Numbered from the stretch's first letter, positions 5,165 to 57,415 are shown. The stretch: DNA of 64,000 nt from Cyanophyceae cyanobacterium (GCA_050331735.1 JBHJGN010000016.1:1-64000); one strand, 5' to 3'. The notes: generated from the letters alone by a model not told the origin. Numbers and translations are program-made.

Positions 5165-7456
5165 ATGTCTAGTTACCAAGAGTCCATTTTACGTCGGGCT
5201 ATATCAAAAGAGCAGTTTGAGCAACTGTGCTGTCTGTGGCAGCAGACGGCACAATCGACTCAAGCTTTGTTAGTGACAGAGACAGAGCTATTGACTCGCG
5301 GTAAAAATCAACGGCAAGAGCGCTTCCGGCTCCTCCTCGGCCAGCAGTTTAGCGCTCTTCTCTTCGGCAATCAAATTACAGAGGATGACGTTTACGTATC
5401 CGCTACTTTCGACCCACAAGCGATCGCCAATTTCTCGCCTCTGCTAGAGCAGCAGCTCGGGTCTTCTGCGGGCAAACGCCTTGAGCGCCTTCACCAGGCT
5501 CGGCTAGCGAAGCCAACAGAAATTATCAGTCATTTTGCTCTGCAATTGCTGGAGATTTTGGCTCCGAATACTGAGCGTCCATCTACTTCAGTTGCTCAGG
5601 TGGTGCGCCAACCGCTTGAACAAGAACCGATTCTCGATGCTTTTCAGAACATTAACGGGTCGATCGCAAAAACGGTGAAGCAGGTTCGCAGCTTGCTTCA
5701 GGTCGATAGAGTAGTGATTTATCAGACCGATGTTGAGCTGAGTGAGGAAGCGGACGAGCGACGCTTGGTTGATGCGGTTACCTATGAAGCTTTGGCTTCT
5801 GAGCGCATTCCCTCGATTCTGCACTTTCAAGAGGAAGTCTGTTTGAGCGAGTCTCCCGACTGTCGAGATAAATATCGTCAAGGGTTTACCTTAGCCGTTG
5901 ATGACGTTCATACAGATTCTCGGCTTGGTTTGTGTGTGCAAATGCTCATGCAAGAGCTCCGGGTAAGGGCAAAGCTCGTCACGCCAATTGTCGTTCAGGA
6001 AAAGCTCTGGGGGTTACTGATTGCTCATCAATGCACGGCTCGTCAGTGGCAGCCAGCCGAAATCCAGTTTCTCAAGAACGTCGCCGACTATTTGGCGATC
6101 GCTATTTACCAAACCCAGTCTTACCAGCAACTCCACCAGCAACAGCAAGGGTTAGAACGGCAAGTCGTGCAGCAGGCTCAAGAACTGAAAGAGGCCCGCA
6201 TCGTCGCTCAAGCTGCTAACCAGTCTAAAAACGAGTTTTTAAGCAATATTAGCCACGAGTTTCGCACTCCTCTGACCCACGTCATCGGTTTGTCCGGGAC
6301 GCTGATGCATTGGTCTAAACAAGGAGTTTCTTTCCCGGTTCACAAACAGCGGCAGTATTTAGACAAGATTCACGATAGCGGCAAGCAGCTTCTCGCTCTC
6401 ATCAACAACCTTCTCGACCTCTCTCAAGTTAAAGCTGGACAATCCTTGCTGCACATCAGCGAGTTTTCTCTTCAGCAGCTTGCTCGGCAGGTGTTCCAGT
6501 CTGTGCAGCCAGAAGCCGCTGCTCAAAATATCACTCTCCAGCTAGATTTACAAGTTGAGCCTTACCAGGACCGGTTTTGGGCAGATCCAGAGCGAGTGCA
6601 GCAAATCCTAGGGCATCTGCTCGATAACGCGATTAAGTTTACTCCGGCTGGAAACAGGGTGACACTGAGAGTCCATCGCGAAGATGAGTATGCTATTTTC
6701 CAAGTAGAAGATAACGGCATTGGGGTTGCTCAGGAACAGGTTCCGCTGCTATTTGAAGCGTTTCAGCAGCTAGAGCATTCGCGCCAGCGGACTCATGGCG
6801 GCGCTGGCTTGGGTTTGTCTTTAACAAAAGAATTAGTCGATCTTCATCGAGGCACCGTTGAAGTAGAATCAACCGTTGGCCAAGGCTCTTTGTTTACTGT
6901 CCGGCTCCCGCCTCAAAGTTCCGCCGAAGCACTTCCTGACAAATTGAAAGAAGACAGTACCGCTGTTAAAGGAGCGACGGGTTCCTCCCAGGCGAATCCA
7001 TCGCCAAACGCAGGTTTCCGAGCCCAGCCCCAAGAATTATGCCCCGACTGCTCTCCGCAAAACACGCTAGCCGCACTCAGTTCCGGCACTGAAGGCAGGG
7101 CGAGTCGTAGCCAGGGCGTAGTTGTTCTCGTGGAAAACGACGAGGAAGAAGCGTCCTGGATCGGCAAAATGCTGTCCGCTAACGGCTATCAGATGGTCTG
7201 GTTAACCAATGGCTCAACGGCGGCGGCTCAAATTCAGTGGCTGCGGCCAATCTGCGTGATTCTCAGTTGGCAATTGCCTAACGTGCGCCATACTATTCAC
7301 ACTCTCAAGCAACTGCTAACGACCAGCAACACCAAGGTACTTCTCCTCACTTCTTCAGGCGCTCCCGGGCAGCAAGAATTGTTCGAGGAGCTGGCAGACG
7401 ACTTTATTCAAAAGCCAATACAGCCAGAGCAGTTTTTAGCAAAGCTTAGCAATTAA
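5165..7456 (+). CDS. cikA: Circadian input kinase A-like GAF-histidine kinase-pseudoreceiver protein
   Basis: N-terminal domain; GAF (VDRVVIYQ...LWGLLIAHQC); HisKA H-box ISHEFRTPL; HATPase N/G boxes. The C-terminal receiver-like domain lacks the phospho-Asp (VILSWQLP). Confidence 0.8.
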   Translation: MSSYQESILRRAISKEQFEQLCCLWQQTAQSTQALLVTETELLTRGKNQRQERFRLLLGQQFSALLFGNQITEDDVYVSATFDPQAIANFSPLLEQQLGSSAGKRLERLHQARLAKPTEIISHFALQLLEILAPNTERPSTSVAQVVRQPLEQEPILDAFQNINGSIAKTVKQVRSLLQVDRVVIYQTDVELSEEADERRLVDAVTYEALASERIPSILHFQEEVCLSESPDCRDKYRQGFTLAVDDVHTDSRLGLCVQMLMQELRVRAKLVTPIVVQEKLWGLLIAHQCTARQWQPAEIQFLKNVADYLAIAIYQTQSYQQLHQQQQGLERQVVQQAQELKEARIVAQAANQSKNEFLSNISHEFRTPLTHVIGLSGTLMHWSKQGVSFPVHKQRQYLDKIHDSGKQLLALINNLLDLSQVKAGQSLLHISEFSLQQLARQVFQSVQPEAAAQNITLQLDLQVEPYQDRFWADPERVQQILGHLLDNAIKFTPAGNRVTLRVHREDEYAIFQVEDNGIGVAQEQVPLLFEAFQQLEHSRQRTHGGAGLGLSLTKELVDLHRGTVEVESTVGQGSLFTVRLPPQSSAEALPDKLKEDSTAVKGATGSSQANPSPNAGFRAQPQELCPDCSPQNTLAALSSGTEGRASRSQGVVVLVENDEEEASWIGKMLSANGYQMVWLTNGSTAAAQIQWLRPICVILSWQLPNVRHTIHTLKQLLTTSNTKVLLLTSSGAPGQQELFEELADDFIQKPIQPEQFLAKLSN

Positions 7457-14811: not shown

Positions 14812-16107
14812 ATGCCTAAAGTGAAGCGTCAACTGGTGCTATTTCTCGCTGTTCTGCTCGTGCTGGGGAGTGGGGCGATCGCTCGCTCGCAGTTGTTGAG
14901 CCAATCATCTCCGGTGGTGCTCGAACGAGTGGGAGATTTTTGCCGAGATGACCCCAAGTGCTTTAACCGCCTGCACCCAGCCATTGAGCCAGCCGCGACC
15001 GCTGAACCCGGTCAGCAAATTGTCTTTGGGGCTCGCGATGCTTTTGATGGCGTGTTGACCATTGAATCGACGGCGGAGGATGTAGCAGCAGCAGACCTAT
15101 CGGGAGTCCATCCCCTCACTGGTCCCGTGGCAATTGCCGGGGCGCAGCGGGGAGATGCGATCGCCGTGACCATTGTCGATATCGAGCCAGACGAATACGG
15201 CTACACTGCCATCGTTCCTGGCTTTGGGTTTCTCCGCGACCTGTTTCCCGATCCCTATCTGGCCAACTGGAATTTAACGCCGACAGCAGCAACGTCCGAA
15301 CAAATTCCCCAGGTGACCATTCCCTTTGCTGGCTTTACCGGGTCCATTGGCGTACTGCCGGGAGAACCAGAGTTAGAACGGTTTCTGGAACGAGAAGCGG
15401 CACTGGAGGAAGTCGGCGGGATTGTGCTGACTCCTCTGCCCACCGGTGCCCTACCGGAAGCTTTATGCGGCCCGAACGGAACTGAATCAGAGCGCTGCTT
15501 GAGAACCGTTCCTCCCCGCGAGAACGGTGGCAACATGGATATCAAGCAGATGCAGATTGGGACAACGGTCATTTTGCCCTGCTTCGTTGATGGCTGCGGG
15601 CTGTACGTCGGAGATGTTCACTTTGCCCAAGGAGACGGGGAAGTGTCCGGAACAGCCATTGAGATTGGAGCCAACGTGACGGTGACAGCCGAAGTCCGAC
15701 CCGGGTTAGGGGAATCGATGACCATGCCTCAGTTTGAGGGCGGCGATCAGCTCAAAGCCATTGAACCCGATGCTTTTCATGCCACAACGGGTATTCCAAT
15801 TAAACCAGCCGGAGAAATTCCACCTTACCTCACTTACCTTGATAGCGAAGAGATCGCGCCTCTCGAAAATCTCTCAGAAGATTTGACTCTGGCTGCCCGC
15901 AATGCCTTGATTGAGATGGTAGATTACATCGTAGCCGAGTACGAGCTAACCCGCGAACAGGCATATGTGGTGTGCTCTGTGGCGGCAGATTTGCGCATTG
16001 GTCAACTGGTAGATGTTCCTAACTACATTGTCTCCGCCATTCTCCCGCTCAATATTTTCAATCAAACCGGACAGCTAGAAACGAGTGCTGTTGTAGCCAA
16101 GCCATGA
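14812..16107 (+). CDS. Acetamidase/formamidase (FmdA/AmdA) family protein with N-terminal signal peptide
   Basis: Motifs HPLTGPV, ENGGNMD, GDVHFAQGDGEVSGTAIE and QLVDVPN. RBS GAGG. N-terminus MPKVKRQLVLFLAVLLVLGSGAIA. Confidence 0.88.
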   Translation: MPKVKRQLVLFLAVLLVLGSGAIARSQLLSQSSPVVLERVGDFCRDDPKCFNRLHPAIEPAATAEPGQQIVFGARDAFDGVLTIESTAEDVAAADLSGVHPLTGPVAIAGAQRGDAIAVTIVDIEPDEYGYTAIVPGFGFLRDLFPDPYLANWNLTPTAATSEQIPQVTIPFAGFTGSIGVLPGEPELERFLEREAALEEVGGIVLTPLPTGALPEALCGPNGTESERCLRTVPPRENGGNMDIKQMQIGTTVILPCFVDGCGLYVGDVHFAQGDGEVSGTAIEIGANVTVTAEVRPGLGESMTMPQFEGGDQLKAIEPDAFHATTGIPIKPAGEIPPYLTYLDSEEIAPLENLSEDLTLAARNALIEMVDYIVAEYELTREQAYVVCSVAADLRIGQLVDVPNYIVSAILPLNIFNQTGQLETSAVVAKP

Positions 16108-46837: not shown

Positions 46838-49800
46838 GTGGCGACTATTTTTACAGAAAGCTTTGAAACAGATGGCAACGGCAGCCGTTACACCACATCA
46901 ATCCCGGAATTTACCGACGGTAGTAGCGATTTCTTGACTCGCACCGACGGTAGCAACATCAGCGGTGGCTATGATGTCACTGGTTCAGACGGCAGCTTTT
47001 ACTTTGCCGCCCAGGATATTGACGGTGAAGGGGATGCCTCACAACAAACCCTGATATTCTCTGAGATTGACATCGCCAATTTTACCAACCTCAGCTTTAG
47101 TGCCCTGTTTGCTGAAGATGATTCTAGTGACGGCAATGAAGACTGGGATGCCCCCGATTTTGTAACCGTTGAGTATCAAGTTGACGGTGGCGGATTCCTC
47201 GACTTGCTAGCCTTTGAGAATGACGGCAGTACCTTCAACAGCGCTCCTCTTCAAGACACGGATTTTGATGGCACTGGTGACGGCACCGAGGTTACAGATA
47301 CCTTTGCGACCTTCTCAAACACCATTGATGCAACAGGTTCCACACTAGACCTCCGCATTACCTTTGACCTTGACTCCGGTGACGAGGATATTGCCATCGA
47401 CAACATCCAGCTCATGGGCGACGCTGCTACTTCAGAACTATTAATCAGCGAATTTCAGCCAAATCCCCCCGGCACCGATCCCTCTTCTCAAACATTTGAA
47501 CTGAGCGGAACACCGGGTGAGTCTTTCAGTGGCGTGATTGTCGGTATTGAGAGCGATTCTGGAAGTGCCAACCCAGGAGATATCAATAACTTCGAGTCAG
47601 TTTCAGGAACCTTTGATGCCAATGGTTTGTTGACTGTCAGCATTGATGACTTAGAAAACCCCTCGTTTACCGTTGCTTTGCTCTCCGATTTCACCGGGGA
47701 TACCTCCACGGATATCGACCCTGACGACGATGGAATGGCGGATGACCTCTCCACCTTCGGGACCGTTTTTGATGCGATCGGTGTACTGGACGCAATGAGC
47801 GATCAGTCATTATTGTACGGAGCACAGCTTGGCGGAACGGACTTTGACTTCACAGGGTCTGAACCCGAAATTATCTTTCGAGACGCGAGTGTAGGAGCCC
47901 TATTTGCGGTTAACGAGCTCGGTGTTAATGAAGTTTTTGATACCGCCGGGAACAGCGTAGACCCAAACTCTTTTGACATCAACCCTACTACCGGGACAAC
48001 CTTTGGAGCAATTAACCCCAGTTCCGATAATGGTGGGACAACGCTATCGATTCAGGCTAGCGATGCGGTTCAAGCTGAAGGAGACAGCGGTACGACTAGT
48101 TTCACCTTTACGGTAACTCGCTCCGGCGATACTAGCGGAGCAACCGACGTTGATTTTGCCGTTTCCGGTGAAGCTGATGCGGCAGACTTTGGCGGCACAC
48201 TTCCCTCCGGTACGATTAGCTTCGCGGCTGGCGACACCACTCAAACAATCACCCTTGCCGTATCGGGGGATACAGATACAGAAGCAGACGAAGACTTCAC
48301 TGTTACCCTCTCCAACCCGACTAACGGAGCCACAATTGCGACTGCTACCGCTACAGGCACAATCCAGAACGACGATATTACCGTCACCCCGATCTTTGAA
48401 ATTCAAGGAGCTGCTCAAAGCTCACCGCTCGCAGGACAATCTGTTTCCACAATAGGGATTGTGACAGCAGTGGATACCAACGGATTTTACCTGCAAGATC
48501 CGACTGGAGACGGTGACAGTGCTACCTCTGACGCTCTGTTTGTCTTTACTAGCTCTGCTCCTGGCGTAAGCGTCGGCGACGAACTTCAGGTGAGCGGTAC
48601 GGTTAGCGAGTTTATTCCTGGCGGTGCGGGGACAGGCAACCTATCGATTACTCAAATCAGCGGCAGTCCCACGATTACCACCTTATCTACTGGTAATGCG
48701 CTACCGAACTCGGTGGTTTTAGGGGTCGATCGCACTCCTCCCACAGAAATTATTGATAACGATCAAGACACTCAGTACAACGTTCTGCAAGGCGGCGGCG
48801 ACTACGAACCGACCGCAGACGGCATCGACTTCTACGAAAGCCTAGAAGCGATGAGAGTGACGGTTAACGAGCCAGTTGCCGTTGCTGGAACCTCTCAATT
48901 TGGTGAAATCTTTACGGTGGTGAATGATGGTGCTGGCGCCAGCAATTTGAGTCAGCGCGGCACAGCAAATATTGCTCCTGAAGACTACAACCCAGAGCGA
49001 GTTCAGATTGACAGTGACTCGTTTACTCCAGGCGGAATTCCGGATGTCGCGACCGGGGCTGAGCTTAACAACGTCACCGGCGTAATCAGCTACAGCTTTG
49101 GCAGCTTTGAGGTGCTGGCGACAGAAGCCATTACTGTTACTGAATCAAACCTAGAGCCAGAGATCAGCACCATTGCACCAACGGCTACGAACCTTACCAT
49201 TGCCACCTACAACGTCCTCAACCTCGACCCGAACGATAACGATGGCGATATGGATGTGGCCAACGGACGCTTTGAGGCGATCGCTAACGACATTGTTACT
49301 AACCTGAATACGCCGGACGTCATTGGTTTACAGGAAGTTCAAGATAACGATGGTTCCGACAACACCGGCGTTACTTCTGCCAGCGAAACATTACAGCTAT
49401 TGGTTGACGAAATTGCCGCTGCTGGTGGTCCCCAGTACGAATTTATCGACAATACCTTTATCGAAGATGGCGAGAGTGGCGGTCAGCCGGGCGGTAACAT
49501 CCGCACTGCCTTTTTGTATAATCCGAATCGTGTCAATCTCGTTGATGGTTCGGTTCGTCCGATCGGCGATCAAGAGCCAGGTAGCCCCTTTAATGGGTCA
49601 CGTTTACCTTTAGTGGCCGATTTTGAGTTCAACGGTCAAACAGTAACCGTTGTTGACAACCATTTTTCCTCCAAAGGTGGCAGCAGCCCGCTCTTTGGGG
49701 CGATTCAGCCTGCTAGCGATCTTCAAGAAGATCCAGACATTAACGGGAGCCTAGATGAACGTCGGGAGCAGGCGCAGGCGGTGAATGATTTCGTCGATGG

Positions 49801-51028
49801 AATTTTAGCTAACGATGCCGATGCCAACGTTGTCGTTGTCGGTGACCTCAACGAGTTTGAGTTTATTTCTCCTCTTGATATTTTGGCCGGGACGACAGTA
49901 AGCACCAACGGCGGTCAAGAGACTGCCCCGGGTGGAGAGGCTGTTCTGACCAACCTCGTCAATACCATTTCTGAAGAGGAGCGCTATAGCTTTATCTTCC
50001 AGGGCAACTCTCAACAGATCGATCACATTCTGGTCAGCGATAGCTTGCTAGAGGGAGCAGTTATTGATAATGTTCACGTCAATACTGAATTTGCAGCGAC
50101 CGATGAACGCGCCAGCGATCACGATCCGGTGATTGCGAGCCTGAGTCTCGAAAGCGATCGCACTGTTAACGAGATTAACGGAACTCGCGGAGACGATACC
50201 ATTACCGGGACGAACGAGGATGATTTGATTCGTGGCGATAACGGCAATGACATCGTTAATGCTCGCGGTGGTAACGATACCGTTATAGGCGGTCGCGGCG
50301 GAGATTCTCTGAGAGGAGGGGCTGGCGACGATGTGCTGGCCGCCGATCGCGTTGATCGCTTTGACGACTTCGACGGGACTACTAGCTTCCTCAGCGGCGA
50401 CAGCGGTAACGATACTATCTTTGGCGGTCGTAAAGACGACACTATCGGTGGCGGTAACGACGACGATGTTCTATTTGGCAAGGGCGGCGACGATCTGATT
50501 CGCGGAGGAAGCGGTGACGATCTCCTCAACGGCGGTGTTGGGAATGACACCCTTCGCGGTCAAGGCGGTATCGATACGGCTGATTATTCCGACCTCACCT
50601 TTAATGGAGTCTTCGCCAGCGTCGCGGGTCTGGATGTGAACCTGTCTGACAACAGTGCTCGTCACTCCAGTACTAACAATGCCCTGACTTGGGAAGACAC
50701 GTTGACCACCATTGAAAATATAATCGGGACCAGCCGCAACGATCGCTCGATCGGTAACGGCCAGAACAATGTCTTTGACGGCCAAGGGGAAGTCGGTCGC
50801 AGCGATCGCCAAACCCAATTTACCGCTCTTAATGGGGAAACCTACAGCGTCACGGCTGATGTGGTCGAATACAGCGGCTCCCAGAGCGACTTGACCTTCA
50901 TGGGCAGTGCCGATAGCTTCACCGTCATGGGCAGCGGCATCGGCACAGATACTCTAATAGACATTGAGTTTGTGAGGTTTAATGCAGATAGTGCTGTCGT
51001 GGCAACGTCTGATCTAGCCTTCGCTTAA
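46838..51028 (+). CDS. Large secreted ExeM/NucH-like EEP nuclease with Calx-beta, OB-fold and RTX repeats
   Basis: AGGAG RBS with GTG start; Calx-beta (EGDSGTTSFTFTVTRSG); OB fold (IFEIQG...GIVTA...GFYLQD); EEP motifs TYNVLN, GLQEV, NHFSSK, GDLNE, IDHIL and SDHDP; GGxGxD RTX repeats. Confidence 0.88.
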   Translation: MATIFTESFETDGNGSRYTTSIPEFTDGSSDFLTRTDGSNISGGYDVTGSDGSFYFAAQDIDGEGDASQQTLIFSEIDIANFTNLSFSALFAEDDSSDGNEDWDAPDFVTVEYQVDGGGFLDLLAFENDGSTFNSAPLQDTDFDGTGDGTEVTDTFATFSNTIDATGSTLDLRITFDLDSGDEDIAIDNIQLMGDAATSELLISEFQPNPPGTDPSSQTFELSGTPGESFSGVIVGIESDSGSANPGDINNFESVSGTFDANGLLTVSIDDLENPSFTVALLSDFTGDTSTDIDPDDDGMADDLSTFGTVFDAIGVLDAMSDQSLLYGAQLGGTDFDFTGSEPEIIFRDASVGALFAVNELGVNEVFDTAGNSVDPNSFDINPTTGTTFGAINPSSDNGGTTLSIQASDAVQAEGDSGTTSFTFTVTRSGDTSGATDVDFAVSGEADAADFGGTLPSGTISFAAGDTTQTITLAVSGDTDTEADEDFTVTLSNPTNGATIATATATGTIQNDDITVTPIFEIQGAAQSSPLAGQSVSTIGIVTAVDTNGFYLQDPTGDGDSATSDALFVFTSSAPGVSVGDELQVSGTVSEFIPGGAGTGNLSITQISGSPTITTLSTGNALPNSVVLGVDRTPPTEIIDNDQDTQYNVLQGGGDYEPTADGIDFYESLEAMRVTVNEPVAVAGTSQFGEIFTVVNDGAGASNLSQRGTANIAPEDYNPERVQIDSDSFTPGGIPDVATGAELNNVTGVISYSFGSFEVLATEAITVTESNLEPEISTIAPTATNLTIATYNVLNLDPNDNDGDMDVANGRFEAIANDIVTNLNTPDVIGLQEVQDNDGSDNTGVTSASETLQLLVDEIAAAGGPQYEFIDNTFIEDGESGGQPGGNIRTAFLYNPNRVNLVDGSVRPIGDQEPGSPFNGSRLPLVADFEFNGQTVTVVDNHFSSKGGSSPLFGAIQPASDLQEDPDINGSLDERREQAQAVNDFVDGILANDADANVVVVGDLNEFEFISPLDILAGTTVSTNGGQETAPGGEAVLTNLVNTISEEERYSFIFQGNSQQIDHILVSDSLLEGAVIDNVHVNTEFAATDERASDHDPVIASLSLESDRTVNEINGTRGDDTITGTNEDDLIRGDNGNDIVNARGGNDTVIGGRGGDSLRGGAGDDVLAADRVDRFDDFDGTTSFLSGDSGNDTIFGGRKDDTIGGGNDDDVLFGKGGDDLIRGGSGDDLLNGGVGNDTLRGQGGIDTADYSDLTFNGVFASVAGLDVNLSDNSARHSSTNNALTWEDTLTTIENIIGTSRNDRSIGNGQNNVFDGQGEVGRSDRQTQFTALNGETYSVTADVVEYSGSQSDLTFMGSADSFTVMGSGIGTDTLIDIEFVRFNADSAVVATSDLAFA

Positions 51029-51240: not shown

Positions 51241-54216
51241 TCACTGAGCATCCATCCAGTTTTGCCCGACGCGCACATCCACAACCAAAGGTACGCTTAG
51301 CTCTACCGCATTCTCCATTGTAGAAACAATCTGAGGCTGCAACCCTTCCCACTCATCGGGGGGAACTTCAAACACCAGTTCATCGTGAACCTGAAGCAAC
51401 AACTGGGCCTGATAGTTTTGTAAAATGGAGTGTAGCTTGACCATCGCAATTTTAATAATATCAGCGCTAGAGCCTTGGATTGGGGCGTTAGCGGCGGCTC
51501 TAAGCAACTGGGCATCGCCGTAGTTCATCTTGATTTGGCTCAGGTTGAGCGCATCCGGGTTGCAGCCGCGCAGCTTCATTAAATTTTTGCTGGCAAAGTT
51601 GAAGTAGCGCCGCCGTCCTAAAATGGTGGTAACGTATCCATGAGCGATCGCCTCTCGCTTCATCTTCTCTAAATACGCAAATACCTCAGCATAGCGGCTG
51701 CGGTACTTTTCAATAAACGCTTTACCTTCTTTCGCGCTCACTCCCGCTTCTCTAGCGAATCGCTGCGCTCCCATGCCGTAGATCACGCCGAAGTTAATAA
51801 TCTTGCCAAGGCGGCGTTCTTGAGAAGTTACGGACTCTTTATCAAAAATTAGCTTCGCCGTCACGCCATGCACGTCACTTCCAGTACGATAGGCTTCTAG
51901 CAGCACTGGCTGCTGAGTGAGGTGAGCCAAAATTCTCAACTCAATTTGGGAATAATCCACCGCAACCAATTGCCATCCTGGCTTAGGAATAAATGCCTGA
52001 CGGATTTTGCGCGAGAACTCAGTCCGAATCGGAATGTTTTGCAGATTGGGATCAGAAGAAGAAAGTCGTCCGGTGGTGGTAACGCTTTGATTAAAGTTGG
52101 TATGTACTCTCCCCGTATCTGAACGAACCAGCGCTGGTAAAGCATCAACGTAGGTAGACTTGAGCTTAGACAGCGTACGATGCTCCAGCACCGTGCTGAC
52201 GATGGCGTGGTCATGCTGGAGCTTTTCTAAAGTCGCGTGATCGGTTGAATATCCTGTTTTTGTCTTTCGCGACTTACTGCGATCGAGTCCAAGTTTTTCA
52301 AACAAAATCTCGCCAAGCTGTTTCGGAGAACCGAGATTAAATTCCTCGCCTGCATACTGATAAGCCTGAGCTTCCAGCCTTTGCAAATCCTGTTCTAGCT
52401 GCTGAGACAGTCTGTGCAGATACTCTGTATCAATGCATACCCCGCGATCTTCCATCGCCGCTAAAACTGGTTCTAGTGGTTGCTCAACCTCCAACAGCAG
52501 CTTGCGGAGTTCCGGTTGTTTCAGTTCAGCGTTGAGGACTGAAACGAGGCAAAAAGTAACATACGCATCTAAGCCACAGTAGTCAGCTACTTTCTGAATT
52601 TCTAAATCGGCAATGGTTTTTCCTTTGGGAATTTTTAGCTCTTTATAACTCAGAGATCTGATTCCCGATAAATATTCCTCGGCTAAATCCTCTAGTTTAT
52701 GACTCTGTTCGGGACGCAGCACGTAGCTAGCCAGCATTGTATCAAACACAACTCCGGCTAGCCTAATTCCCTGATGCCACAAAATCACCCGGTCGAATTT
52801 AGCATTTTGAAAGGCTTTTGGGTAGTTTTCATCTTCTAGTATCGGACGCAGCGCTGATAGAACCTGCTCCTTGGCAAGCTGGTGTCCTTGAGTATGTGCG
52901 GTGGGAATATACGCTACATCAGTTGCCCCCCAACAGCAGCCAATGCCAACTAATTCAGCATCTCGCGGATTTAACGACGTTGTTTCTGTATCCCAAGCAA
53001 CGGGATGATTTTTGTCGGTATGAGTTTTAAGAAGCTCAACTAATTCTGTGAGTTGCTCTGAAGTGTCAATAATTTTTGGAGCAACGGACGATGAGTAAAC
53101 GACGGTTTGTTCGGCTGACTCCGGCTGTTCAGAACTTGAATCAGATCCCGCTGCAAATAATGCCAACTGTCCATCTGGATTAGATGTCGCTGAAGGAAGT
53201 GGTTCTTTCCCTGAAATATTAGCACTATCTTCTACGGGGGCAGATGTACCGCCAAATTTTTCCTGTAGCCGGTCAATTCTCTTGAGGAATGTTTTGAGCT
53301 CTAGCTCTTCTAAAATAGGTTTTAATGCTTCACTGTCAAATCCTTGAAGCTTGCACTCTTCTAAAACAACATCTACGGGAGTATCTAAGTGAATCTGTGC
53401 TAGGTACTGGGAGTGCAAAGCGTCTGCTTTGCCCGTTTCTAGCTTTTTCTGAACGGCTCCGCCAATGTTATCTAAGTTTTGATAGATTGTTGCTAGATCG
53501 CCGTATTCTTGCAGGAGTTTGACGGCGGTTTTATCTCCGATGCCGCGAACCCCGGGAATATTATCAGATTTGTCTCCACACAAGGCTTTATAGTCTACAA
53601 CCTGATGAGGCTTGATTCCAAGCTTTTCCTCAACAGCGATGGGATCCATTTCTATGTAGCCTTCGCTGGAGCGGTTTTTTAAAGCACTGTTGCTCAAGTA
53701 GAGAACTTTAATATTATTCTGGTCAACCAGTTGAAATAAATCGCGATCGCCTGTTAAAATCTTGACTCGATACCCAGCAAGGCTTGCCTTTTGGGCTAGT
53801 GTCCCTAAAACGTCATCGGCTTCGTATCCAGGAGCCGTAATCACTGGTAAGTTGAGAGCCGCCAGCAGCTCTTTGAGATTGTTTAAATCAGGAACAAAAT
53901 CTTCTGGAGTTTCTTTTCTGTCAGCTTTATAGTTCGCATCCGCTTCATGGCGAAAGGTTGGTTCTCCACGGTCAAAGGCAACAGCGACGAACTGAGGCTG
54001 CTGGGACTCCACCACCTGAGTCAAAGAATTAAGAAACCCAAAGCAGATGCTGGTGGGAATCCCCGTCGAAGTTTTGAGCGGACCTTTCCTCGATGTCGCA
54101 AACGCATAATAGGCCCGAAAAGCTAGAGAATGACCGTCTATCAAAACCAATAGCGGTGCTGTCTCTGACTCGGAACCGCCGGAGAAGGAAGGAGAGGAAG
54201 GAGAAAATTCAGACAT
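51241..54216 (-). CDS. polA: DNA polymerase I
   Basis: 5'-3' exonuclease (IDGHSLAFR, YEADD, GDKSDNIPGV); 3'-5' exonuclease (WDTET); polymerase motifs DYSQIELR, KIINFGVIYG and QVHDEL. Confidence 0.97.
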   Translation of the reverse strand: MSEFSPSSPSFSGGSESETAPLLVLIDGHSLAFRAYYAFATSRKGPLKTSTGIPTSICFGFLNSLTQVVESQQPQFVAVAFDRGEPTFRHEADANYKADRKETPEDFVPDLNNLKELLAALNLPVITAPGYEADDVLGTLAQKASLAGYRVKILTGDRDLFQLVDQNNIKVLYLSNSALKNRSSEGYIEMDPIAVEEKLGIKPHQVVDYKALCGDKSDNIPGVRGIGDKTAVKLLQEYGDLATIYQNLDNIGGAVQKKLETGKADALHSQYLAQIHLDTPVDVVLEECKLQGFDSEALKPILEELELKTFLKRIDRLQEKFGGTSAPVEDSANISGKEPLPSATSNPDGQLALFAAGSDSSSEQPESAEQTVVYSSSVAPKIIDTSEQLTELVELLKTHTDKNHPVAWDTETTSLNPRDAELVGIGCCWGATDVAYIPTAHTQGHQLAKEQVLSALRPILEDENYPKAFQNAKFDRVILWHQGIRLAGVVFDTMLASYVLRPEQSHKLEDLAEEYLSGIRSLSYKELKIPKGKTIADLEIQKVADYCGLDAYVTFCLVSVLNAELKQPELRKLLLEVEQPLEPVLAAMEDRGVCIDTEYLHRLSQQLEQDLQRLEAQAYQYAGEEFNLGSPKQLGEILFEKLGLDRSKSRKTKTGYSTDHATLEKLQHDHAIVSTVLEHRTLSKLKSTYVDALPALVRSDTGRVHTNFNQSVTTTGRLSSSDPNLQNIPIRTEFSRKIRQAFIPKPGWQLVAVDYSQIELRILAHLTQQPVLLEAYRTGSDVHGVTAKLIFDKESVTSQERRLGKIINFGVIYGMGAQRFAREAGVSAKEGKAFIEKYRSRYAEVFAYLEKMKREAIAHGYVTTILGRRRYFNFASKNLMKLRGCNPDALNLSQIKMNYGDAQLLRAAANAPIQGSSADIIKIAMVKLHSILQNYQAQLLLQVHDELVFEVPPDEWEGLQPQIVSTMENAVELSVPLVVDVRVGQNWMDAQ

Positions 54217-54319
54217 ACATCTATTTTAGCGAGAGACTTTGGCCACCAAGGAACCCAGAAGGGTGCTGCGACCATAAACTTGTTTTGGTCGTAGGGAAAT
54301 TCTGGGGCAGTAGTGAGAG

Positions 54320-54718
54320 CTAAGCACTATCTTGATTTTTGATATAGTCTTTAATTTTCTCTAAGGTAGCACCGCCGCAGGAGTTGACGGCATAACCCAG
54401 CGACCAAAGAACGGGCTTGCGATAAAACCCCGACAAATAATCGCTAAACTCCTTGCGAACCAGGCGAGAAGAAACCGTTTTAAGGTTGTTGACCAACTTG
54501 CTAGGAGCGACTTTTGGGTTAACGTCGAGCAGGACGTGCAGATGGTCAGCCTCCGTATTGAACTCCAAAACCGAGCAATCCCATTTAGAACAAGTATCGT
54601 GGAAGATTTGTTCTAGCCGTTCATGGATAGCTCGGTTAATCACTTTATAACGATATTTTGTCACTATAACTAAGTGTAGTTTCAAGCTGTAAACAGCTCC
54701 GCTCGTTGACTTGTGCAT
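54320..54718 (-). CDS. tnpA: Y1 HUH transposase TnpA
   Basis: HLVIVTKYR, EADHLH (HUH), LKTVSSR, LWSLGY and catalytic Y in KDYIKNQ. ATG at 54718. Confidence 0.93.
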   Translation of the reverse strand: MHKSTSGAVYSLKLHLVIVTKYRYKVINRAIHERLEQIFHDTCSKWDCSVLEFNTEADHLHVLLDVNPKVAPSKLVNNLKTVSSRLVRKEFSDYLSGFYRKPVLWSLGYAVNSCGGATLEKIKDYIKNQDSA

Positions 54719-54745
54719 TATTGGACTAAGTGATACAATCTGTTC

Positions 54746-56125
54746 ATGATACTCGCGCACGTCTACAAGCTCAAGCCCTCGCCCTCCCAATCGGCACTAA
54801 TGCACGACTGGCTGAACATGCTGCGGGCGCACTACAACTTCTCCTTGCGAGACCGTATTGAAGCCTATGAACAGGCAAGAAGTCCTGTGCTAGGTAACTA
54901 CTCTCGACTGGACAACCAGGGGAGGACGCGACACCGGAACTTGGTTCCGGTGCGCGAGTCGTCCGTGGTGTGCTGCCCATTGACTTGCTCAGTTAACAAA
55001 ACAGCAACAGTGGGCTATCCTTGGACAAAAGTGGGGAAGAGGCGCTCTGCGGGGATGCAGCAGGACGCTTACCTACCGGAGATGAAGTCAGCTAGACCTT
55101 GGTATAAGCGAATTAACTCTGACGTTCTGCAAACGAACCTGCGGCGGCTCAACGATGCCTTTAACCGTTTCTTTGACGGACTAGAAAAGTATCCCCAGTT
55201 CAAGACTCGCAGTAAGTTTCGCTCTTTTAGCTACAAGCCCAAGCAGGTCAAGATGGAAGGGAATCGAGTTTATCTGCCAGGGTTGGGCTGGATGCGCTTT
55301 TACCTATCTCGTCCTCTGCCAGAGGGGTTTGAAATTAGAACGGTAACGGTAAGGCGCAAGAGTGACGGCTGGCATATGTCGGTGCGGCTAGAGAACGAGG
55401 ATGTTCCTAGCCTGATGCCAAAAGAAACCAGCCAAATTGGTTCAGCCATAGCAGTAGACTTGGGCATTAGGAAGCTAGCGGCGTTGAGCAACGGGGAGTT
55501 GGTTGAAAATCCTAGATTTTCCAAGCGAGTCGAGCGCCGAAAACGGATTAGGCAAAAAGCCGCTGCCAGGAAGATCAAAGGGTCGAAGAATCGCGCCTCG
55601 GCGTATCGATATTTGGCGAAGCTAGACCAGAAAGTAGCTAGAGGGCGAGCCGACTATCACTGGAAGCTAGCTAACCAGTTAGCCCGTGCTGGAGATGCCA
55701 TTATTTTTGAGGCACTCAACATCCGAGGCATGATGGCAAGGTGCAAGCCGAAGCAGTGTCCAGAAACTGGGAAGTATCTTAAGAACGGGCAGGCGGCTAA
55801 GCGCGGTCTCAATCGCGTTATTGCTGATGCTGGCTGGGGAGAGCTAAAGCTAAAGACGAAAGCCGTAGCTGCGAAGCTAGGCTTGATCGTCTGCGAAGTT
55901 GACCCCAAGTTCAGCTCTCAAGAGTGTAGTGAATGCGGCTATATCTCTCCGGTTAATCGAGACAAGGAGAAGTTTCTGTGCGAGGCTTGCGGGTACTTCT
56001 GCGACGCAGATACTCAGGCTTCGCATAATTTGCTCCAAAGAGGACTAAAATCTCTGGGAATTAGTCCAGCCCAGCTACGGGGAGTCCCCTCGAAAGTTAC
56101 ACCTAGGAGTTCTGCTCAGCCGTGA
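54746..56125 (+). CDS. tnpB: RNA-guided endonuclease TnpB
   Basis: N-terminal YKLKP; RuvC-I AVDLG; RuvC-II IIFEAL; zinc finger CSECG/CEACG; RuvC-III DADTQAS. Confidence 0.92.
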   Translation: MILAHVYKLKPSPSQSALMHDWLNMLRAHYNFSLRDRIEAYEQARSPVLGNYSRLDNQGRTRHRNLVPVRESSVVCCPLTCSVNKTATVGYPWTKVGKRRSAGMQQDAYLPEMKSARPWYKRINSDVLQTNLRRLNDAFNRFFDGLEKYPQFKTRSKFRSFSYKPKQVKMEGNRVYLPGLGWMRFYLSRPLPEGFEIRTVTVRRKSDGWHMSVRLENEDVPSLMPKETSQIGSAIAVDLGIRKLAALSNGELVENPRFSKRVERRKRIRQKAAARKIKGSKNRASAYRYLAKLDQKVARGRADYHWKLANQLARAGDAIIFEALNIRGMMARCKPKQCPETGKYLKNGQAAKRGLNRVIADAGWGELKLKTKAVAAKLGLIVCEVDPKFSSQECSECGYISPVNRDKEKFLCEACGYFCDADTQASHNLLQRGLKSLGISPAQLRGVPSKVTPRSSAQP

Positions 56126-56341
56126 AATGCGGTCGCCCATCTGAATGCGGGACGCTGCATTCCGCAGTTCCCGCATGAGGAGCGACAGAAAACATCATCG
56201 GGGTTGCTCGATGAGCCTAGGAACCCTCGGCAGCTCAGTCTGTTCGAGTGGAGGAATGGTCAAGTAATTGGCTGTTCAGATTCTGCGACTGTAGCTTTAG
56301 CTCAATCGTAGAGTATGTCAAAAGGACAAATGAGACAACCG
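56075..56341 (+). ncRNA. Putative TnpB omega/reRNA (boundaries approximate) with flank-derived guide
   Basis: Established IS605 architecture: the reRNA overlaps the tnpB 3' end, runs through the right-end hairpin and takes about 16-20 nt of flank (from 56322) as guide. Confidence 0.55.
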
Positions 56342-56782
56342 CCCCATCTGTTCAGAGACTTTGTTGAGCTTATTCGCCAACCTTTACTGTCTTTTAATAA
56401 GTGTAAAGTCCTGTAAATATCAGGAGCCATGTTTTAAAGAAGGCCTTATCTTAATAAATAAGCACAGAGGCAAGCAAAGCTTAAAGGAAACAGAGATTAG
56501 AACTTGTGCTTCCCGTTCTCAATCTCACCGGCAACTCCTAGAGCTAGCGTCAATTTTAGATAGTTCTGCTTCTAATCTGCTAAGAGATTAATGCTAACAG
56601 ATTAGTCAAAGTAGCCGCTATAAGTATCGCCTGAATCGGTGTTGTGATGCTAGCGAATTAAGAAGCTCTGTTGGTACGTCCACTCTAGTAATAACATTCT
56701 TCCTGTTTAGTTAGGAGTCCAAATCGCTTTTACGTCTTGTACACCCGATCGCCCGCCCTCCCTTGAAGGCGGGCAAATTGTT

Positions 56783-57415
56783 TTAAAGACAAAAGCTCTG
56801 GATTTGCTGCCAAATCGTCGGCAATGTACTGGTTAACGTGTGATCGCTCTTCAGCTCAATTAATTCTACCCAAGGACGCTGACTAGCATAGTCTCGACTC
56901 GCCTGCACTGGAATTACTTCATCCGAGCGTCCGTGAAGAATTAGCGTTGGCACAGGGCGCTGTAGCTGAAGTTCTGGGTACTGCTGGATATCAGGAACGA
57001 ACTGATAGTGAAGCGGGAGACAGCGCCCCTCGCCGTAGTGATAGATTGATAAATACCCAGTTTCCTGCCATTGCTGAAGCCGACCTCCGAGTTGAGGCAA
57101 CCAGTATTCCAGAAAGCTAAAAGCCGGGGCAAGAAGGACCAGTCGCTGTACCTGCTGATGCTGCTGCCCCAACCACGCTGCCGTTAAGCCCCCAAAACTA
57201 GAGCCAATAAGGGTGATTGGGGTAGACGCTGGAAATGCTGCTGCCGCCTGCTGCAATTGCCGGGTTAGCGTCAGATGCGAAAAATCCTCCTGATTCAGGT
57301 CGAGAATCTGAAGGTCAATGTGGCGTTGCCAAAAGCGATCGCGCAAGTACTGAGCCTTTGTTGACCGGGGACCAGAAGCAAAGCCGTGGAGGTAGATGTA
57401 GGCAGGTTGAACCAC
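56783..57415 (-). CDS. YqiA/YcfP-family esterase (alpha/beta hydrolase)
   Basis: YLHGFASGPRSTKA, GSSFGG, HGRSDEVIP and SDH. Confidence 0.88.
   Translation of the reverse strand: MVQPAYIYLHGFASGPRSTKAQYLRDRFWQRHIDLQILDLNQEDFSHLTLTRQLQQAAAAFPASTPITLIGSSFGGLTAAWLGQQHQQVQRLVLLAPAFSFLEYWLPQLGGRLQQWQETGYLSIYHYGEGRCLPLHYQFVPDIQQYPELQLQRPVPTLILHGRSDEVIPVQASRDYASQRPWVELIELKSDHTLTSTLPTIWQQIQSFCL

Follow-up and report, generated by a model that had tools for sequence, protein, structure and literature searches.

We analysed a 64,000-nucleotide (nt) stretch of DNA, hereafter the window, from Cyanophyceae cyanobacterium (GCA_050331735.1 JBHJGN010000016.1:1-64000), and find that positions 54247-56321 are very probably an insertion sequence (IS) of the IS200/IS605 family, 2075 bp in length, with an IS608-type TnpA, a divergently oriented tnpB, and a tetranucleotide, CCAC, that lies just outside it. 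The element is an ordinary member of this family and not a new kind, and the mechanism is already textbook for IS200/IS605 elements with TnpB. Every family feature of IS200/IS605 or TnpB that can be checked in silico is present, except a match to an Rfam covariance model. The element probably uses CCAC as an unusually C-rich four-base motif for landing and cutting. A preliminary description made from the sequence alone had named motifs and hairpins at both ends, and all are found at the coordinates it gave. It had also called the element complete. The ends and both genes are indeed present, but the window copy carries two small inserts that are missing from its sister copies.

Sequence comparison with sister copies in the same genome settles the boundaries of the element and argues against a chance arrangement. 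Left ends on contigs C90 and C5 are 95% identical to the left end (LE) in the window, and right ends on contigs C45 and C70 are 85% identical to its right end (RE). The three left ends agree from CCAC inward and differ outside it, reading GGCCAC, TGCCAC and CACCAC, with G, G and A at position -5. On the right, the copies agree through a second tetranucleotide, TCAA, and differ from the next base onward (AAGG, AGTT and TGCT). The flanks of these copies show no target duplication. A search with the TnpB protein as query gave 35 related loci, all but one in cyanobacterial-labelled records, the best being 73% identical. In other genomes, the RE ends in TCAA and the flank then diverges in 12 of 12 trimmed relatives, and copies within each of three genomes (G246, G056 and G010) diverge immediately 5' of CCAT. 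All three copies in this genome and six CCAC-type relatives abut CCAC, and position -5 is variable among the nine CCAC-type insertions.

The two ends have the architecture expected of single-strand transposition. CCAC, at 54243-54246 on the plus strand, is the target and left cleavage tetranucleotide; it belongs to the flank and is the predicted transposon-associated motif (TAM) of TnpB. The LE (54247-54319, plus strand) consists of a 15-nt linker, the DNA guide GGTG at 54262-54265, and an imperfect hairpin, CTGCGACC..GGTCGTAG, at 54266-54294, with a good predicted DNA fold (-10.6 kcal/mol, z -2.75). The RE has GATT at 56279-56282, the hairpin CTGCGAC..ATCGTAG at 56283-56311 and TCAA at 56318-56321, also on the plus strand. 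Both hairpins are subterminal imperfect palindromes on the same strand, and terminal inverted repeats are lacking. The foot of the left hairpin is 19 nt from CCAC, and the foot of the right hairpin is 10 nt from the cut. The same 19-nt and 10-nt spacings and the TCAA right cleavage site are published for IS608 in the available part of PMC3201880.

We reconstructed an empty site in silico by following reading frames across the four possible pairings of sister-copy flanks. Only the C5 left flank paired with the C70 right flank gives a long frame across the joint CCAC|TGCTTG. Of its 438 codons, 258 come from the C70 flank and 179 from the C5 flank. The C70 side forms the N-terminal part and encodes a membrane segment and a proline-rich region, and the C5 side forms the C-terminal part, with a TonB_C domain (3e-8) beginning 12 residues past the joint. 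The sister copy therefore interrupts a tonB-like gene (C5:~49674-50212 with C70:142-916). The frame is broken when the joint is shifted by -4 nt, which removes CCAC, by +1 nt, which adds the next C, or by -1 or +2 nt. Taken with the similarity boundaries, the frame test suggests that CCAC stays in the target and that the cuts fall right after CCAC and right after TCAA. A different placement, in which CCAC lies inside the element or a pentanucleotide, CCACC, serves as target, is very improbable. A C follows CCAY in all copies and nearly all relatives, and copy similarity begins at CCAC itself, both of which favour it. Set against these points are the loss of the tonB-like frame at -4 or +1, a relative (L084) in which CCAT is followed by T, covariation of the motif with a guide inside the element, and the 19-nt spacing, which fits IS608, where the cleavage tetranucleotide is outside the IS (PMC3201880, available part).

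Placement of the cuts directly after CCAC and TCAA is accompanied by a guide-target relationship that extends beyond this genome. A hairpin-motif scan of 401 genomes of the order gave hits in 16, with no more than one hit per genome for a reversed-pattern control. The 35 distinct hits comprise 26 left ends, four right ends and five that are neither or degenerate. Pairing of LE and RE hairpins by similarity failed for most of 22 more-distant loci, where the ends differ or only tnpB is present, and these loci were excluded from the count of left ends. Left ends with the guide GGTG have CCAC in all nine cases, 19-22 nt upstream of the hairpin, and those with GGTA have CCAT in all 16, 16-21 nt upstream. 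The one remaining left end, L082, has AGTA with CCAT. Crosswise combinations are absent (0 among 26 left ends). The GGTG group includes at least four unlike left-end sequences. One GGTG end (L081, from G010) resembles the GGTA-type ends of its own genome, and the guide switch therefore occurred more than once. Right ends carry GATT, or GAAT in more distant relatives, and both are always found with TCAA, leaving no variation to test. The preliminary description had derived both cleavage sites by the same rule as in IS608. That holds on the left, where GGTG pairs with CCAC and CCAT accompanies GGTA as predicted, but on the right the GATT/TCAA assignment is by analogy with IS608 only.

Two gene-less loci were also seen in the scan. 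L091 (G399:C194:~5175-5300) is a miniature with LE and RE of about 110 bp that runs from CCAC to TCAA. L088 (G056:C63:~2205-2275) consists of one hairpin that has a guide of the left type (GGTA) and is flanked by CCAT on its upstream side and ..GTCAA on its downstream side. These miniature derivatives have the appearance of non-autonomous elements similar to palindrome-associated transposable elements and are possibly mobilised by TnpA.

The gene identities are clear. tnpA (54320-54718, minus strand) encodes a Y1/HUH transposase of 132 amino acids (aa) from the ATG at 54718, and its open frame also permits a TTG start at 54790. The protein matches Pfam Y1_Tnp (4e-40) and the NCBIfam equivalog transpos_IS200 (4e-38; 130 bits, cutoff 55). 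Its best solved relative is the TnpA of IS608 (ISHp608, Helicobacter pylori; 6.5e-23), with ISDra2 TnpA further off (1.4e-10). The HUH motif and the catalytic tyrosine are present, H59/H61 and Y125 aligning to H64/H66 and Y127 of IS608 TnpA. tnpB (54746-56125, plus strand) is divergent from tnpA and encodes 459 aa. It matches the Pfam families OrfB_IS605, Cas12f1-like_TNB and HTH_OrfB_IS605 and the NCBIfam model guided_TnpB (239 bits, cutoff 100). Residues 114-442 align to ISDra2 TnpB (8bf8/8exa; E 6e-26). The RuvC triad D238/E322/D422 corresponds to D191/E278/D361 of ISDra2 TnpB, and the zinc-finger cysteines C394, C397, C412 and C415 (CxxC..CxxC) align as well; this alignment confirms the earlier observation that both sites are intact. 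An AlphaFold model of TnpB has a mean predicted local distance difference test score (pLDDT) of 76.5, and residues 47-88 fall below 50.

The end of the element has the properties of an RNA scaffold. The 128 nt before the right boundary (56194-56321, plus strand) are conserved across relatives despite differences in their hairpins and flanks, and we predict them to be the scaffold of the omegaRNA (also called right-end element RNA, reRNA), a stretch that includes the guide GATT, the RE hairpin and TCAA. We aligned the window with 10 of the 12 trimmed relatives and folded the 11 sequences with RNAalifold. Five helices with 36 pairs are found, 21 of which have compensatory changes. In this alignment 95.4% of cells are paired. 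Shuffled alignments have 79.2%, with none of 500 attaining the figure of the real one, and sliding the partners by 1-3 columns lowers it to 38-48%. Helices 1 and 4, which are not the TnpA hairpins, hold 11 covarying pairs, which suggests that an RNA is under selection; helix 3 is invariant and so uninformative. A search of 53500-57000 against Rfam at E<=1 gave no match. The Rfam models account for a minor fraction of TnpB omegaRNAs, according to Meers et al. (PMC10055086).

The right flank (56322-56341, plus strand) starts with the first base after TCAA and is the predicted guide portion of the omegaRNA. The 19-mer guide of the preliminary description, AAGGACAAATGAGACAACC at 56322-56340, is this flank. 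The right-flank 20-mer occurs nowhere else in the genome, where the next-best match is 13 nt, and sister copies have other sequence beyond TCAA, at the predicted guide position. CCAC as the TAM and 56322 as the first guide position are both predictions with good support. The C-rich TAM, proposed earlier as unlike the TTGAT of ISDra2, gains support as a prediction from the sister-copy boundaries, the guide covariation, the IS608 spacing and an RNA that ends at TCAA. In relatives L027-L051 the tnpB frame spans nearly the whole scaffold (EPGNP..QLSLFEW) and stops inside the right hairpin. Since the length of this C-terminal tail varies among relatives, it may be conserved for the RNA and not for the protein.

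The element most likely works as published for IS608 and ISDra2, by DNA-guided peel-and-paste with TnpB re-cutting the scarless donor joint. In the available parts of PMC3201880, PMC10055086 and PMC10278001, peel-and-paste transposition uses DNA guides, and TnpB with its omegaRNA re-cuts the donor joint so that the element is copied back. Applied to the window, TnpA would bind both top-strand subterminal hairpins. GGTG, 5' of the left hairpin, would pair with CCAC, and GATT, 5' of the right hairpin, would work with TCAA. The top strand would be cut after CCAC and after TCAA, and the element would leave as a single-stranded circle and re-insert 3' of another CCAC. The expected donor joint is ..TTTGGCCAC|AAGGACAAATG.. 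and the expected circle junction is ..TCAA|CAAGGAAC.. A transcript running through tnpB would fold over its last ~128 nt as the scaffold and continue into the flank, giving the guide AAGGACAAAUGAGACA... TnpB with this RNA would then cut the empty donor joint CCAC|AAGGACAAATGAG.. at the TAM CCAC, and repair from the sister chromosome would restore the element. This scheme presumes that the genes are expressed, that TnpB is active and that its TAM is the same as the TnpA target. TnpB TAM and TnpA target coincide in tested systems, and covariation of guide and TAM is known, as described in the available parts of PMC10055086 and PMC10278001.

As in IS608, then, the window TnpA has equivalents of the HUH motif and of Y127. 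Some relatives of the element carry GAAT as right guide, which is the right guide of IS608. Unlike IS608, the window element has tnpA divergent from tnpB, the layout of IS605. Its TnpB also differs, belonging to a cyanobacterial clade with an extra segment of ~50 aa that contains CCPLTCS, and its left motif and guide are CCAC and GGTG, where IS608 has TTAC and AAAG. Shared with IS608, as far as the available description of that element goes, are top-strand subterminal hairpins that each have a 4-nt guide on their 5' side, spacings of 19 nt and 10 nt, and TCAA as the right site. ISDra2 TnpB with its reRNA/omegaRNA (Karvelis 2021; PDB 8exa, 8h1j) has the same domain order, D/E/D triad and zinc finger, and likewise a scaffold at the tnpB 3' end and RE, a guide from the flank and a TAM 5' of the target, these last three arrangements being predicted for the window. 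It differs in that its TnpB is alignable over part of the protein only and in its TAM, TTGAT as against the predicted 4-nt, GC-rich CCAC; the window scaffold sequence also has no Rfam family match. AmaTnpB from Alicyclobacillus macrosporangiidus has a four-base, non-T-rich TAM, TCAC, one position away from CCAC (PMC10278001, available part), but this comparison concerns the TAM, and host and omegaRNA differ. In ISGst of Geobacillus stearothermophilus (Meers 2023), TAM and transposon-encoded motif (TEM) covary with the DNA guides, spacing between motif and guide is flexible, and TnpB targets the donor joint (PMC10055086, available part); its TAMs are TTTAT/TTCAT-like and experimentally tested, whereas the window element is known from its sequence.

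A survey of 59 TnpB orthologs obtained TAMs for 27, described there as 'nearly all AT-rich' apart from a small group of G-rich ones (PMC10278001). Our literature search found no paper combining TnpB, TAM and CCAC; the supplementary TAM logos of PMC10278001, which were outside the search, may include CCA-type TAMs. We hold it to be an even chance that this cyanobacterial TnpB clade reads the GC-rich TAM CCAC and its close relatives CCAT, with the flip brought about by a single G/A change in the DNA guide. If this is so, either TnpB tolerates C or T at position 4 of the TAM or its protein contacts have co-evolved over very short distances. It would add a C-rich motif to the TAM repertoire, and a compact nuclease with the TAM CCAC or CCAT would widen the range of targetable sites, a matter of modest interest for genome editing. 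The CCAC and CCAT elements, closely related and one guide base apart, form a natural pair for asking how a protein-read TAM tracks a DNA-read target. The omegaRNA scaffold alignment is now available for a clade outside Rfam coverage. It is unlikely, though worth weighing, that the TnpB TAM is not exactly CCAC, being degenerate (CCAY, or fewer bases) or including a further base read by the protein, and that the TnpA target is only an approximation to it. The switch of close relatives between CCAC and CCAT by one DNA-guide base speaks for such a TAM, because TnpB must follow through protein contacts or tolerate position 4, and published TAMs reach 5 nt (PMC10278001, available part). Against it, position -5 is not conserved among the nine CCAC-type insertions, and the TAM matched the native flank motif of the element in the systems tested so far (available parts of PMC10055086 and PMC10278001).

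The window copy itself contains two inserts. The first, a palindromic micro-element of 46 nt (54921-54966, plus strand), lies in frame in tnpB and adds 15 aa (RTRHRNLVPVRESSV). The public-run search listed one DNA run with the locus, a stromatolite metagenome (run X1; 0.86 of words), and the sister copies in this run skip 54923-54969 and have GA in its place. The insert is also missing from 11 of 12 aligned relatives. An identical copy (46/46) occurs at C65:553-598, and in the relative L028 this exact tnpB codon is also the site of a 15-aa insert, encoded by a different palindrome of 45 nt. The 15 aa fall within residues 47-88 and may sit in a loop, as the low pLDDT there weakly suggests. The second is a hairpin-forming insert of 66 nt (56119-56184, plus strand) that is unique in the genome and is likewise skipped by the X1 sister copies. 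It carries the tnpB stop codon, TGA at 56123-56125, and this early stop removes 42 codons that relatives keep. Behind the insert, the same frame continues for 41 codons to TAG at 56309-56311 in the right hairpin, and this stretch matches the tails found at the C-terminus in relatives. Between the insert and the conserved RNA scaffold lie 9 nt.

These inserts raise the question of whether the window copy is a decaying relic of a real element, its nuclease or mobility or both disabled by the inserts, the truncated tail and a weak hairpin, with only the sister copies active. We consider this a distinct possibility, though a doubtful one. Apart from the absence of both inserts from the sister copies and the lost 42 codons, a C:A mismatch in its stem leaves the right hairpin with a weak DNA fold (-5.8 kcal/mol, z -1.4, equalled by 18 of 200 shuffles). 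Furthermore, the two sister left ends are identical to one another in the sequence shown, as are the two right ends, which suggests recent transposition, and the window copy differs from them by 5% at the LE and 15% at the RE. Yet both open reading frames (ORFs) are intact with all catalytic residues present, and both inserts are in frame, in multiples of three. The 15 added residues fall in a disordered part of the AlphaFold model, and L028 has an insert at the same codon. The tail varies in length among relatives and may be conserved as RNA, and the 66-nt insert stops short of the scaffold.

Several observations weigh against our interpretation of the locus as an IS608-type element with the TAM CCAC. 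The window copy has a foreign 15-aa insert in TnpB, the early stop with its 42 missing codons and the C:A mismatch in a poorly folding RE hairpin. The C5/C70 frame test also passes at -3, +3 and -6 nt, and the frame alone does not fix the joint to the base. Among LE-like rows, L082 (AGTA with CCAT) and L079 (GCAG with CCAT) are exceptions to the pairing rule; only position 4 of the guide-target pair varies in the data, and rows that share a genome or an element lineage do not count as independent. The step from GATT to TCAA obeys no simple complement rule; TCAA closes the element in GATT and GAAT relatives alike. The public-run search listed no RNA run with the locus, and the omegaRNA is so far only predicted. 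Finally, the searches recovered neither a real empty site nor an excision joint or circle junction. The other copies and empty sites to which the preliminary description looked are thus recovered in part: other copies share the boundaries and CCAC, but a real empty site does not appear. None was recovered among 40 relative genomes, which belong to other families of the same order and include no close relative. In the nearest of these, G010, polA stands beside a hydrolase gene, and of the 1.2-kb spacer between them only the 17 nt next to polA can be aligned. Metagenome contigs gave no exact match to the right-flank 24-mer. Contigs of X1 contain no element-skipping joint and no circle junction, and two further runs (X2 and X3) gave no match; contigs drop rare variants, and this outcome is uninformative either way.

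The 46-nt insert belongs to a family of ~45-nt palindromes with five members in this genome: 54921-54966 in the window, C65:553-598, C65:~2560-2610, C44:~80730-80780 and C81:~15215-15270. Members have the outer stem GGAC(G/A)..(C/T)GTCC and a bulge YGAGN on the 3' side, and the apical stem of the copies in this genome is CCGGAAC/GTTCCGG. The palindrome in L028 (~2665-2712) has the same outer architecture and a different apical stem. All five copies in this genome lie inside ORFs and leave the frames unbroken. Their hosts are the window tnpB, a DUF4277/DDE transposase, an MmeI-like protein, another TnpB paralog, in which the palindrome directly follows the GIDVG motif, and an ORF of 199 aa, at its end. 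The 17-nt core is found only in this genome among the 41 searched. These palindromes resemble the in-frame Rickettsia palindromic elements and the small dispersed repeats (SDRs) of cyanobacteria.

The element is located upstream of polA, 27 bp from the start codon of that gene (ATG at 54216 on the minus strand; interval 54216-54243), and thus separates polA from any promoter formerly further upstream. In G010, polA and the alpha/beta-hydrolase-like gene are adjacent too, without the element between them. A promoter and terminator scan gave three promoter-like and three terminator-like sites, compared with 2.0 and 2.3 expected from shuffles. The genome has at least eight further distant TnpB paralogs with 23-33% identity, on contigs C61, C55, C48, C37, C38, C7, C15 and C81, and several of them have an adjoining tnpA.

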